DNA from: an uncultured Phycisphaerae bacterium
GTDB taxonomy: Bacteria; Planctomycetota; Phycisphaerae; UBA1845; JANYLN01
Reading direction: 5' to 3'
Assembly: GCA_963767465.1 (NCBI GenBank)
Contig: CAVYDW010000003.1
Span: 848,116-912,115 of the forward strand
DNA: 64,000 nt
The notes beneath the pieces are model-generated. The model saw nothing but the letters and a program-made list of their open reading frames with translations. It searched no databases and was not told the DNA's origin. The position numbers and the translations under genes are program-made. Shown here piece by piece: positions 40,811-44,407 of the stretch (positions are counted from its first letter, which is position 1; the number at the start of each line of letters is the position of its first letter).

Positions 40811-43800
40811 ATGGCGGAGACGAGGCAGTTCGATTCTGTCACGCTGGACAAGATGGTCGAGAACGTCGCTTGCTGGACCCAAGCAGGCGGTAACAAGCCA
40901 GCGTTTACCATGCTGTTGGGCTCCGGATTCAGTTTTCCCATCATCCCGACGCCCAGCCAGATGCTTGCCAAGGACATTGCCTGGTGGCTCTATTGGCAGA
41001 AGCAGAAGAAGGGGCAGGGCAAGTTCACGGACAGGCCTGCTATCCACAAGAACCTCCCGAAATTCGAGAAGGACCTCTGGAAGCAGGTCCAGAAGGATGC
41101 GAATTCCTCTTTCGATCTAGACTCATCCGGGCTGCCGGACGGGACTCGTCCTGAAAACGCCGCCGCTGCTTACAAGGCGATGATGAGTGGGCAAGCGACA
41201 GGCGGGCTTGCCACGCCGGACCACAGGCGCCGCTACCTCCGCGACGTGATCGCTCGCGCCAGGGGTAAGGTGAATGGGGCGCACCTGTATCTGGCGGATA
41301 TCCTGAGCGCTCAGGATGGGGGTGCCATTGGCGGTACCTTCTGCAGGACCATCTTCACGACCAACTTCGATCCACTTCTGCAGATAAGCCTGCAGTTGGT
41401 CCGGAAGCTCTACTATATGACCGACCGACCACACACGCTCGAGCCGCCGGATGACGAGGAAAGCGAGGCCATCCACCTCATCTATTCGCACGGGAGCATT
41501 CATCGGTACGTCCTTCTGAACACGGAGTCGGAGATTGAAGCCGCTCGGAGGCGCAACGCCCCCAGTCTTGTTCCCTATTTCGAGAAGCACGGTGTGATCG
41601 TGATGGGTTACAGCGGGTGGAACGACGCGACGATGGCTGCCCTACGCAACTGCAGCCGATTTGCATGGAACCTGTACTGGTGTGATCGGTGGCCGGCGGA
41701 CCAGGCGCCCGCGCGCTCAGGCAAGACGTAGTGGACTTTCTCTCCGAGAAGCGCGGGAATGCCTTCTACGTTCATATCAGCGGGGCGGATGAGGCCATGC
41801 TGAGGATTCACGAACGCCTGGGGCTGGGAAGATGGCCGCGGTTCATACTTTCCCCGTTGGACCACGTCATTGACCAGATCAACAGCGTGGACGTTCTCGG
41901 GCGTAGGGCTGCCAGGTCAGGGCGGGGGTGGTGAGGGGGGTAACGCCGGAAGGTCCGGGGGTCCTGAAGGCCTGTCGGACACCCTCAAGGACGTGCGGGA
42001 CAGGACGCTCAAGCTTCTGGAGGCGGCCCGGCAGGCTTTTGAGACGGGCGGAGTCGGGCCGGCGGTCGGCGAAGAGGGGAAGGCTGCCGCGGCCGTGACA
42101 GGCGCCGCGACGGTGGCCAGGATCATGAACGATGCCCTGGCGGCCGCATATGCCGGGAGGTATGGCGATGCGGCGAACCTCTGGGGCACGGTGATCGATG
42201 ATCCTCTGGCACCTGTGGGCGAGAGGGCCATGGCCCTGTTCAATCGCGGGTTTGTGTACGGGGAGATGAAGGAGCCTGAGAAGGAAGTGGCGGACTACAC
42301 GACGGTGCTCGGGATGGCGGATGCTCCGGCGGAGCAGCGGGCCATGGCCCTGTTCAACCGCGGGGTTGCCCATCGGAGGATGAACGAGCTCGAGAAGGCA
42401 GTGGCGGACTACACGACGCTGCTCGGGATGGCGGATGCTCCGGCGGAGCAGCGGGCCATGGCCCTGTTCAACCGCGGGGTTGCCCATCGGAGGATGAACG
42501 AGCTCGAGAAGGCAGTGGCGGACTACACGACGGTGCTCGGGATGGCGGATGCTCCGGCGGAGCAGCGGGCCAAGGCCCTGTTCAATCGCGGGGTCGTGTA
42601 CGGGGAGATGAAGCAGCCTGAGAAGGCAGTGGCGGACTACACGACGGTGCTCGGGATGGCGGATGCTCCGGCGGAGCAGCGGGCCAAGGCCCTGGTCAAT
42701 CGCGGGGTCGTGTACGGGGAGATGAAGCAGCCTGAGAAGGCAGTGGCGGACTACACGACGCTCCTCGGGATGGCGGATGCCCCGGCGGAGCAGCGGGCCA
42801 TGGCCCTGGTCAACCGCGGGGTTGCGTACGGGGAGATGAAGGAGCCTGAGAAGGCAGTGGCGGACTACACGACGGTGCTCGGGATGGCGGATGCTCCGGC
42901 GGAGCAGCGGGCCATGGCCCTGGTCAATCGCGGGGTCGTGTACGGGGAGATGAAGCAGCCTGAGAAGGCAGTGGCGGACTACACGACGGTGCTCGGGATG
43001 GCGGATGCTCCGGCGGAGCAGCGGGCCATGGCCCTGTTCAACCGCGGGGTTGCCCATCGGAGGATGAACGAGCTCGAGAAGGCAGTGGCTTACTACACGA
43101 CGGTGCTCGGGATGGCGGATGCTCCGGCGGAGCAGCGGGCCAAGGCCCTGGTCAATCGCGGGGTCGTGTACGGGGAGATGAAGCAGCCTGAGAAGGCAGT
43201 GGCGGACTACACGACGGTGCTCGGGATGGCGGATGCTCCGGCGGAGCAGCGGGCCATGGCCCTGTTCAACCGCGGGGTTGCCCATCGGAGGATGAACGAG
43301 CTCGAGAAGGCAGTGGCGGACTACACGACGGTGCTCGGGATGGCGGATGCTCCGGCGGAGCAGCGGGCCATGGCCCTGTTCAACCGCGGGGTTGCCCATC
43401 GGAGGATGAACGAGCTCGAGAAGGCAGTGGCGGACTACACGACGGTGCTCGGGATGGCGGATGCTCCGGCGGAGCAGAGGGCCATGGCCCTGGCCAATCG
43501 CGGGGTCGTGTACGGGGAGATGAAGCAGCCCGAGAAGGAAGTGGCGGACTACACGACGGTGATCGGGATGGCGGATGCTCCGGCGGAGCAGCGGGCCATG
43601 GCCCTGTTCAATCGCGGGGTCGTGTACGGGCAGATGAAGCAGCCCGAGAAGGAAGTGGCGGACTACACGACGCTGCTCGGGATGGCGGATGCCCCGGCGG
43701 AGCAGCGGGCCCAGGCCCTGGTCAACCGCGGGGTTGCGTACGGGGAGATGAAGGAGCCTGAGAAGGCGGTGGCGGACTACACGACGCTAATCGGAATGGC

Positions 43801-44407
43801 GGATGCCCCGGTCGATCAGAGGGCCAAGGCCCTGTTCAATCGCGGGGTCGTCTACGGGGAGATGAAGCAGCCCGAGAAGGAAGTGGCGGACTACACGACG
43901 GTGATCGGGATGGCGGATGCTCCGGCGGAGCAGCGGGCCATGGCCCTGTTCAATCGCGGGGTTGCCCATCGGAGGATGAACGAGCTCGAGAAGGCAGTGG
44001 CGGACTACACGACGGTGCTCGGGATGGCGGATGCTCCGGCGGAGCAGCGGGTGAGAGCGCTTGTTGGCAGAGGGTGGGCTGCTTACGGTCGGGGGGACGT
44101 CGGGTCGCTGATTGCGGACTCTGAGGCGGCCTTGAAGATAGATCCGTGCGAGTGGCGTGCCCGAGTGAACATGGCGCTTGGGCTGCTGCTGACGGGTGAG
44201 GTGGACCGGGCGCGGGCGGAGTACGGCCGCGCGGTGACGGAGTCGAAGTCTCCGGCGGAGCCGGCGAAAGAAGCCATAGACGATCTGACCGACGCCGTCG
44301 CAGCGCGGGGGTCGGTTGATGGGGCGGACGACATCCTGGCAATGCTCAGGTCGTACCTGCCAGGGGAGTCTGGGCAAGGCGGGGCGGGTGGGGCGGTGAG
44401 TAAGTGA
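40811..44407 (+). CDS. SIR2-like (SIR2_2) domain fused to a TPR repeat array, ~1200 aa (probable frameshifts near 41715 and 41900)
   Basis: GGAGG RBS; MLLGSGFS, IFTTNFDPLL, YSHGS, VMGYSGWND; coding linker continues in alternate frames into the 845-aa TPR ORF, which has no clear RBS/start. Confidence 0.8.
42227..44050 (+). repeat. 16 tandem 114-bp (38-aa) TPR-coding repeats
   Basis: 1824 bp = 16 x 114; consensus A(M/K)AL(F/V)NRGV(VYGEMKQP/AHRRMNEL)EKAVADYTTVLGMADAPAEQR. Confidence 0.98.

Follow-up and report, generated by a model that had tools for sequence, protein, structure and literature searches.

In a 64,000-nt stretch of DNA from an uncultured Phycisphaerae bacterium (hereafter, the window), positions 40811 to 44407 of the plus strand encode a protein in which an N-terminal SIR2 domain is followed by a long array of tetratricopeptide repeats (TPRs). 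We regard this SIR2-TPR protein, with moderate confidence, as a DSR-like, STAND-less abortive-infection enzyme that hydrolyzes nicotinamide adenine dinucleotide (NAD+). Its enzymatic activity, trigger, oligomerization, and defence phenotype are proposed from sequence, from structural models, and by analogy with characterized relatives. The gene comprises 1198 codons and a stop codon once two compensating frame changes are read through. NAD+-hydrolyzing SIR2 enzymes (NADases) are a recurring effector in bacterial immunity and have relatives in eukaryotic immunity, and infection reaches the known SIR2 forms by several routes: Argonaute guides, cyclic-nucleotide signals, HerA, STAND modules, or, in the case of DSR2, a HEAT-like solenoid. 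So far, no TPR-based sensor-effector would be simpler than SIR2 fused directly to TPRs without a nucleoside triphosphatase (NTPase).

The SIR2 part is a SIR2_2-type domain, the type of defence sirtuins, at positions 40811 to 41900 (plus strand, as are all features of the gene given below), with its last strand and helix in a shifted frame. Residues 204 to 309 of the first open reading frame (ORF1) matched Pfam SIR2_2 (PF13289) with 33.6 bits against a cut-off of 24.5, and the four motifs on which the preliminary description of this DNA had based the same assignment were all located. Among 49 aligned sequences, the Rossmann glycine-rich NAD-binding loop GSGFS (40919 to 40933) has invariant G37 and G39, and S41 is conserved in at least 90%. 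In the TTNFD motif (41357 to 41371), which contains the candidate catalytic Asn185, T184 and D187 never vary, and each of T183, N185, and F186 is conserved in at least 90%. The HGS motif (41489 to 41497), with the candidate catalytic His227, has invariant H227 and G228, and the GYSGW motif (41606 to 41620) has invariant G266, G269, and W270. In the PADLOC library, which includes DSR models, nine families matched ORF1 at an E value of ≤0.01; the best was the SIR2 associated with prokaryotic Argonaute (pAgo), at 1.4e-15, the candidates PDC-S65 and PDC-S21 were also among the best, and no DSR model was among the nine. A profile of the family matched the Sir2 of SPARSA in the PDB (8jkz/8in8) at an E value of 8.6e-12, with the TTNFD and HG motifs aligned and the alignment running through the "FYV...GAD..M" segment. 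A phmmer search of the PDB sequences with the lone SIR2 piece found nothing, and an NCBIfam search found nothing specific for the SIR2 part.

The AlphaFold2 model of the SIR2 domain had a predicted local distance difference test score (pLDDT) of 90.7, and a Foldseek search with this model returned 57 PDB chains at an E value of ≤0.001. Among the matches listed were SPARSA, SIR2-HerA, KomBC, ThsA, DSR2, and Avs5, and none of those listed was a classical deacetylase sirtuin. By sequence and modelled fold, the domain thus appears nearest to antiphage NADases; its earlier grouping with the NAD+-depleting antiphage effectors agrees with the PADLOC matches, the SPARSA profile match, and the Foldseek result alike. 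Defence sirtuins of the matched kinds act via NAD+ depletion (PMC12931631, PMC11850899), and NAD+ hydrolysis is predicted for the SIR2-TPR protein. Asn185 and His227 would be its catalytic residues by analogy with the N110A and D112A mutants of Avs5 (PMC12931631) and with the H171A label on DSR2 entries. A complex prediction with two copies of the SIR2 domain scored 0.01, against a mark of 0.42, and gave no answer either way on a dimer.

C-terminal to the SIR2 domain, a helical linker (41945 to 42118) with the homologue-conserved alignment consensus "...TLKD..DRT...L..A...F" leads to an N-terminal capping hairpin, a degenerate unit 0 (42119 to 42226; AlphaFold2 helices H2-11 and H15-26). The array itself (42227 to 44050) consists of 16 TPR units of 114 nt (38 residues), in the order ABBAAAAB ABBAAAAB. 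It is closed by a C-terminal cap (44051 to 44407) of two degenerate TPR hairpins, two helices, and a disordered tail (model helices H641-744), with low pLDDT at residues 752 to 762. The cap is conserved in one homologue subfamily, and tails similar to it were found in P0001, P0004, P0005, and P0008; the "TPR end-of-group" domain of NCBIfam (NF047558) fits P0054 and not the C terminus of the window protein. Tandem Repeats Finder reported positions 42225 to 44051 with a period of 114, 16.0 copies, 90% matches, and 0% indels. The 16 near-identical 38-residue TPRs of the preliminary description were thus recovered, with no indel in 1824 nt, and comprise ten in-frame units of type A (YG[E/Q]MK) and six of type B (HRRMNEL). 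The third ORF matched Pfam TPR_1 with 303.5 bits. Unit 4 begins at residue 234 of this ORF, and in the match residues 234 to 261 correspond to profile positions 1 to 28, so that unit position 1 is TPR_1 position 1 and the position numbering used earlier is correct.

An AlphaFold2 model of positions 42119 to 44404, built on an alignment of the TPR parts only, had a pLDDT of 94.7 and showed paired helices in each unit. Helix A has 17 residues (positions 35 to 38 of the previous unit and 1 to 13), followed by a turn (14 to 16), helix B (17 to 28), and a loop (29 to 34), and from these boundaries the four residues beyond the canonical 34 lengthen helix A at its N terminus. The PDB matches of the model were TPR solenoids, consensus TPR superhelices included, and eight-repeat consensus TPR chains superposed on it with TMt values of 0.71 to 0.79 and root mean square deviations of 3.9 to 5.2 Å. 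The modelled superhelix has about 19 hairpins, 16 of which are the near-identical 38-residue units. Between the SIR2 domain and the TPRs lies a spacer of about 110 residues of helices, and the three ORF pieces gave no match to a P-loop or STAND NTPase family, in agreement with the earlier statement that a STAND module is lacking.

The variable sites of the array are positions 2, 5, 9 to 13, and 15 to 17, with minor variation at positions 20, 27, and 28. Position 2 is M, K, or Q and position 5 is F, V, or A; this variation is confined to type A, because all six B units have M2 and F5, and the earlier remark that it falls mostly within type A therefore holds. In 85 SIR2-bearing homologues with at least four units each, the 38-residue spacing of units is the rule (509 spacings), and the within-array entropy peaks at positions 2, 5, 9, 10, 12, 13, 14, 17, and 37, the last of which corresponds to canonical TPR position 33. 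Magliery and Regan found TPR positions 2, 5, 9, 12, 13, 33, and 34 to be the most variable and to lie on the concave face, and the ligand contacts of HOP are at positions 2, 5, 6, 9, 12, and 13 (PMC1261162). As far as sequence register and modelled helix boundaries can tell, the variable repeat positions line the concave, ligand-facing side of the TPR superhelix. The preliminary description had placed them in the groove, and positions 2, 5, 9, 12, and 13 are indeed canonical concave positions and not positions of the convex face.

Types A and B differ across a cassette of nine consecutive positions (9 to 17), of which five versions occur: VAHRRMNEL (six units), VVYGEMKQP (six), VAYGEMKEP (two), FVYGEMKEP (one), and VVYGQMKQP (one). 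Thirteen of the 16 unit sequences are distinct. Mean identity over all pairs of units is 83.4% (A-A, 88.5%; B-B, 98.2%; A-B, 76.0%), with at least 85% in 49 of the 120 pairs, and the nucleotide differences number 0 to 3 for B-B, 1 to 18 for A-A, and 10 to 24 for A-B pairs. By a Nei-Gojobori count, the proportion of synonymous differences (pS) between A and B in the cassette is 0.60 and that of nonsynonymous differences (pN) is 0.35. Outside codons 2, 5, and 9 to 17, the scaffold pS is 0.09, equal for A-A and A-B pairs, and the earlier observation that the scaffold is almost invariant at the DNA level is thereby supported. Because pS is 0.60 in the cassettes against 0.09 in the scaffold, the cassettes are old alternatives in a recently homogenized scaffold. 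Judged from the sequence, this contrast bears the mark of units being duplicated and converted, and not of a recent charge switch. The earlier comparison with the repeats of fungal NLRs stands on this point, in that the scaffold carries the concerted-evolution signature described for them (PMC4986451).

The same data revise the idea of a repeat code. The preliminary description had proposed a binary code that switches charge between G-E and R-R at positions 12 and 13, loosely like that of TALE proteins. The two types stand, with ten A and six B units; the strictly binary part does not, given five cassettes and further variation at positions 20, 27, and 28. The charge-switching code is overstated, since the two types are distinguished by a run of nine positions (10, 11, 15, 16, and 17 switch besides 12 and 13), synonymous sites included, and since positions 12 and 13 take dozens of pair states in 715 homologue units (GQ in 81, GE in 54, GK in 40, GR in 30, down to RR in 10). 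Nothing in the data shows a rule of one repeat for one ligand unit, and the TALE analogy likewise goes too far. Both cassette archetypes also occur in other species, with NRGVAHRRQGR in P0015 and P0010 and NRGVAYGE in P0048. Among the SIR2-bearing homologues, the window array is the most homogeneous (0.834, against 0.789 for the next and a median of 0.446).

Combining these features, we propose the following mechanism. The SIR2 domain would rest in an inactive state until a foreign protein or polymer, probably of phage origin, binds in the concave TPR groove, the lining of which would consist of the variable positions 2, 5, 9, 12, and 13 together with the A-B turn. The bound ligand would change the conformation or the oligomeric state, upon which the SIR2 domains would hydrolyze NAD+, and the loss of NAD+ would stop the infected cell in an abortive infection of the kind known from DSR2, SPARSA, ThsA, and Avs5. 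The array would evolve by unit duplication, unequal crossing-over, and gene conversion, which would homogenize the scaffold while the older cassettes (Y-G-E-M-K-Q/E-P and H-R-R-M-N-E-L) would be kept and redistributed.

The architecture is not confined to the window. An exhaustive search of 1.84 billion representative proteins for SIR2-TPR relatives gave 889 matches at an E value of ≤0.001 and 126 clusters at ≤1e-30, mostly of 600 to 1360 residues. Longer relatives of the SIR2 piece numbered 159 at ≤0.001 among 3614 candidates; the best 120 of these 159 have 582 to 1362 residues and up to 58% identity, and nearly all carry PF13289 and TPRs in one ORF. In the eight homologue sequences inspected, the SIR2 domain, linker, 38-residue TPRs, and cap lie in one chain. 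When a single genome from each of 185,579 species was scanned for the motifs, 66 SIR2-TPR loci were confirmed, in Planctomycetota, Acidobacteriota, Verrucomicrobiota, Gammaproteobacteria (Tahibacter and Steroidobacter), Accumulibacter, Desulfobacteraceae, Nitrospira, Fibrobacteres, and others. SIR2-TPR proteins are therefore a sizeable, widespread family.

In relatives of the source genome, the gene was rarely found. Among 61 genomes of the order, there was one strong match, the source genome itself, and three weak matches, and the gene was not found in either of the two congeners. Genome G003 has no SIR2-TPR gene at this spot, its DUF2617 gene lying right next to the phosphatase-like gene and leuS, and in G002 the corresponding region is rearranged in order and orientation and also lacks it. 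When window positions 38063 to 45495 were compared with G002 and G003, the segment from DUF2617 to the phosphatase-like gene differed, and a SIR2-TPR gene was present there only in the genome of the window. A tblastn search of the whole genome with three units, the linker, and the C-terminal cap found no paralogue, only the gene itself. The two genes on either side of 27 loci were compared (108 neighbours), and no family recurred more than twice, thereby indicating a stand-alone, patchy accessory gene without a conserved partner; Tn3 transposases accounted for 2 of the 108. The distribution of the SIR2-TPR gene is accessory and horizontally mobile. As a separate observation, the GC content at third codon positions is 0.75 in the SIR2 part (40718 to 41731) and 0.83 in the TPR part, against 0.84 to 0.89 in most neighbouring genes, which is a weak hint of foreign origin.

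The TPR scaffold is also found on other proteins. A search with the TPR part gave 1353 matches at an E value of ≤0.001 among 8000 candidates scored. Of the best 120 of these matches, 24 carry PF13289, and the remaining ones listed carry AAA_16/STAND, ParA-like, kinase, caspase, metallo-beta-lactamase, rhomboid, or OmpA domains or no known domain. In 99 new scaffold proteins, the units again have the 38-residue spacing (903 spacings), and the common scaffold reads ADYTxVIxMxDAPxEQ[KR]AxALxNRG. The arrays of seven such proteins (P0218, P0220, P0238, P0222, P0264, P0226, and P0237) are 40 to 56% identical to the window array, and these proteins differ from the window protein in their N-terminal modules; none has a name implying a tested function. 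Pfam confirmed a Ser/Thr kinase in P0222, a caspase (Peptidase_C14) in P0264, a ParA/MinD-like P-loop in P0226, and nSTAND1/AAA_16 in P0237. The homogeneity of P0238 (13 units at 0.88) and P0220 (15 units at 0.81) is equal to or above that of the window array, and P0220 alternates two cassette types, GLQGDRERE and GLQEKWEKA. The proteins P0218, P0220, and P0238 have 13 to 15 units with mean identities of 0.76 to 0.88, and their N-terminal 450 to 700 residues have no strong Pfam match. Judged by sequence, the proteins that share the scaffold look like a modular sensor family, and the joining of one sensor scaffold to interchangeable output domains is, by analogy, typical of conflict systems. 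The 38-residue scaffold often pairs high repeat identity with concave-face variability, as in fungal NLRs.

Several results weigh against a role of the SIR2-TPR protein in defence. The cassette pN/pS is 0.59, and because it is below 1, this crude test shows no positive selection. Defence models among the 108 neighbours were few (mad2 twice, mad3, mad8, PDC-M41A/B, PDC-M30A/B, AriA, and LmuB) and the neighbours were mostly housekeeping genes, so that enrichment in defence islands is not demonstrated. The neighbours in the window encode an efflux pump, a DUF2617 protein, an unknown protein, a phosphatase-like protein, and LeuS. The same scaffold is joined to winged helix-turn-helix (wHTH), kinase, and OmpA domains as well, and these versions could be ordinary signalling proteins. 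PADLOC has no model for the SIR2-TPR family, and no description of a STAND-less bacterial SIR2-TPR protein was found by word searches of an open-access subset of full texts, supplementary tables being outside the scope of those searches. Finally, the error-prone assembly leaves singleton unit differences, and perhaps the exact unit count, uncertain.

The strongest alternative, which we consider doubtful, is a housekeeping or regulatory enzyme whose TPRs recruit a cellular protein or polymer and whose SIR2 domain deacylates, ADP-ribosylates, or senses NAD+ status, the homogeneity of the repeats being a neutral by-product of tandem duplication. The mostly housekeeping neighbourhoods without clear defence islands, the occurrence of the scaffold on kinases, wHTH-AAA_16 regulators, and OmpA domains, and the cassette pN/pS below 1 would all suit such an enzyme. 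However, the nearest relatives of the SIR2 domain in sequence and fold were all antiphage NADases among the matches listed, the distribution is patchy, with the gene found neither in congeners nor at the syntenic spot, and the variation is concentrated on the ligand face. The caspase and STAND fusions of the same scaffold also point to conflict systems.

A second alternative, which we judge improbable, is that assembly artefacts account for part of the array's details, noisy long reads over 114-nt repeats having distorted the number, order, or identity of the units. Uncorrected indels are demonstrable in the assembly, and some unit differences are singletons, such as GG>TT in unit 8 and several changes seen only in unit 14. 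Most unit polymorphisms, however, are common to three to eight units and form consistent haplotypes, there is no indel in the 1824 nt of the array, and arrays of this kind also occur in homologues that were assembled from short reads. In addition, the two 8-unit halves have different flanking markers, and a falsely duplicated block is therefore unlikely.

The order ABBAAAAB occurs twice, and the rare VAYGEMKEP variant stands at units 6 and 14. In the cassette region (nt 16 to 54, codons 6 to 18), the summed differences at an offset of eight units were 9, against 54.9 expected (permutation P of about 0.0009, for one of eight offsets tested), whereas the flanks gave 32 observed against 32.1 expected (P = 0.61). 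A recent duplication of an 8-unit block was considered and rejected, as pairs at offset 8 are no closer than other same-type pairs and the flanking markers have no period. Twelve homologous arrays of 10 to 12 contiguous units, a length too short for a period-8 test, showed at most a neighbour effect at offset 1 or 2. Canonical TPRs make one superhelical turn per 7 to 8 repeats (PMC4191447), and with such a turn the Arg-Arg B units of successive turns would stack and form a basic stripe opposite a Gly-Glu surface. Such stacking may occur and is offered as a lead, not a finding. It is a slim prospect that the cassette order is functional; the array would then read a ligand that is periodic or polymeric by means of a charge pattern laid out over two turns, with its register under selection, and such a ligand may be a nucleic acid, a different polyanion, or the lattice of a phage tube or capsid.

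The extent of the gene depends on the two frame changes. The locus consists of three abutting plus-strand ORFs at 40739 to 41731 (frame 2), 41689 to 41934 (frame 1), and 41870 to 44407 (frame 2), and the start at 40811 is residue 25 of ORF1, following the database gene call P0121. The preliminary description had noted two frameshifts within one gene, and both were confirmed by stop codons and by frame switches in tblastn. With the full-length homologue P0005, the alignment followed frame 2 as far as 41716, continued in frame 1 until 41925, and resumed in frame 2 at 41945, and the shifted segment was stop-free and 48.6% identical to P0005 over 70 residues. The first change (frame 2 to frame 1) lies within 41686 to 41728, between the opening of frame 1 at 41686 and the frame 2 stop at 41729; homology places it at about 41705 to 41716, inside a GC-alternating run, with the tblastn junction at 41716. 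The second (frame 1 to frame 2) lies within 41804 to 41931, frame 2 being open from 41804 and the frame 1 stop standing at 41932; by homology it is at about 41905 to 41931, in G-rich homopolymer runs, with a tblastn gap from 41925 to 41945. What the frame-shifted piece contributes to the SIR2 fold is its final strand and helix, and it can be aligned with the sequence of the SPARSA Sir2 structure. In homologues, one ORF of 600 to 1360 residues spans the SIR2 domain, linker, and TPRs, and the shifted segment aligns to these proteins, which bears out the earlier view of a single SIR2-TPR gene.

Other genes of the same assembly, which has 4 contigs yet a completeness score of only 73.8%, are broken in a similar way. 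In the region of contig C1 of the source genome (G000) at 884720 to 892945, outside the window, rpoB is spread over at least three frames with one in-frame TAG, and rpoC leaves its frame and then returns. The leuS gene (45523 to 48783), two genes downstream of the SIR2-TPR gene, has its HIGH-region segment (45777 to 46097) in another frame than the remaining ORF (PF09334, 1.9e-11; PF00133, 1.1e-8), an out-and-back pair like that of the SIR2-TPR gene. Two of three uvrA-like loci in the assembly were also fragmented. Because rpoB, rpoC, and leuS are essential and cannot be pseudogenes, the indel rate of the assembly must be about one per 1.3 kb, and two indels in the 3.6-kb SIR2-TPR gene are therefore the expected background. 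As these three genes are broken alike, the frame changes need no biological explanation, and both are probably assembly indel errors in a gene that is intact in the organism. In this assembly, a frameshift alone is thus no sign of a pseudogene, and any "pseudogene" in it needs read support. The sole public run with matching reads (X1, a soil metagenome; word share, 0.05) gave four short contig pieces at ≥80% likeness, one of them near-identical (41497 to 41650, 154 nt of the SIR2 part, with two differences); the frameshift sites and the array lie outside its coverage, and no RNA run with matching reads was listed.

A real pseudogene, with both frameshifts present in the organism's own DNA and no product other than a SIR2 fragment of 306 residues and perhaps a separate TPR protein, is very improbable: both indels are in the deposited sequence, the 306-residue fragment stands as a called protein in the database, and the matching public reads reach neither frameshift site, but rpoB, rpoC, and leuS have the same kind of defect at about one per 1.3 kb, the two shifts compensate exactly, the shifted segment is a conserved and stop-free homologue match, and the 1.8-kb array is open throughout.

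Several other elements flank the gene. A 447-residue ORF without a Pfam match lies on the minus strand at 39057 to 40400, divergent to the SIR2-TPR gene; it is 50% identical to its counterparts in both congeners (G001 and G002), and no counterpart was detected in G003. A palindromic hairpin at 44616 to 44647, a GC-rich, perfect 14-bp stem with a 4-nt loop, sits in the 570 nt that separate the SIR2-TPR gene from the phosphatase-like gene. The hairpin was found by a consensus scan only, is followed by a T-run on the minus strand, and may be a terminator. The only tRNA gene in the window, tRNA-Ser (anticodon TGA), is at 48880 to 48968, directly downstream of leuS.

Next, we compared the SIR2-TPR protein with known systems. 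Membership in DSR1/2, SPARSA, Thoeris, and Avs5 was rejected, since defining features of each were looked for and not found. For Thoeris ThsA, the fold match is limited to the SIR2 domain, and no SLOG or TIR family was found in the three ORFs or their neighbours. Avs5 has a SIR2 effector and C-terminal TPR, Sel1, or PPR sensor repeats and hydrolyzes NAD+ on phage sensing (PMC12931631). The window protein resembles it in the order of SIR2 and C-terminal repeats and in a fold match (9jap_A). In Avs5, however, a STAND NTPase lies between the effector and the repeats; membership in Avs or in bacterial NLR-like STAND proteins was rejected, as no NTPase family was found in any piece of the window protein and only the helical spacer separates the two parts. 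The window protein also keeps the HG motif, where PaAvs5-1 has NG (PMC12931631).

SPARSA and the other pAgo-associated SIR2-APAZ proteins have the closest SIR2 domain by profile, PADLOC, and fold; in the Foldseek search, SPARSA 8y80_E matched with an E value of 1.6e-7 and a TMq of 0.61. SPARSA works through NAD+ depletion (10.1101/2021.12.14.472599). In contrast to SPARSA, the window protein has neither APAZ nor an Argonaute partner, its C-terminal half is TPR, and its trigger would be a TPR ligand and not guide-directed nucleic-acid recognition. SPARSA membership was rejected, as only TPRs follow the SIR2 domain and no pAgo was found among the 10 neighbouring ORFs scanned.

In layout, the window protein is like DSR2 of Bacillus subtilis, a single polypeptide without an NTPase that has an N-terminal SIR2 NADase and a C-terminal alpha-solenoid sensor, which in DSR2 binds the phage tail tube protein (PMC10981675, PMC11850899). 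The Foldseek match of the SIR2 model to DSR2 was remote (E value of about 1e-4, 11 to 13% identity, TMq of about 0.4). The sensor of DSR2 consists of a HEAT-like C-terminal domain (CTD) and a middle domain (MID) and has no high-identity repeats, whereas the window protein has a regular TPR array. Membership in DSR1/DSR2 was rejected on the absence of a DSR match in PADLOC and of a MID with a HEAT-like CTD. The architecture is thus not new in kind, since DSR2 is already a STAND-less SIR2 with an alpha-solenoid sensor (PMC11850899). If the predicted TPR groove is the sensor, its regular, designable form would make the mapping of specificity practical.

The array itself can be compared with the fungal NLRs (HET-E/D, NWD, and Pa_2_10340), the units of which are about 85% or more identical, evolve in concert, and have their polymorphic sites on the concave TPR face (PMC4986451). 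By the definition of high internal conservation given there, more than 85% identity over at least 100 residues, the window units lie above the threshold within each type and, at 83.4%, narrowly below it overall. The fungal proteins are eukaryotic, carry NOD domains, and have mostly 42-residue TPRs, and repeat-number polymorphism between strains was shown for them, whereas one allele is known here (a cluster of one member). The window array shares with them concerted evolution, concave-face polymorphism, and, within each type, high unit identity. If the proposed defence function is true, the SIR2-TPR protein would represent the diversification of a receptor by repeat shuffling in bacteria, without a NOD module.

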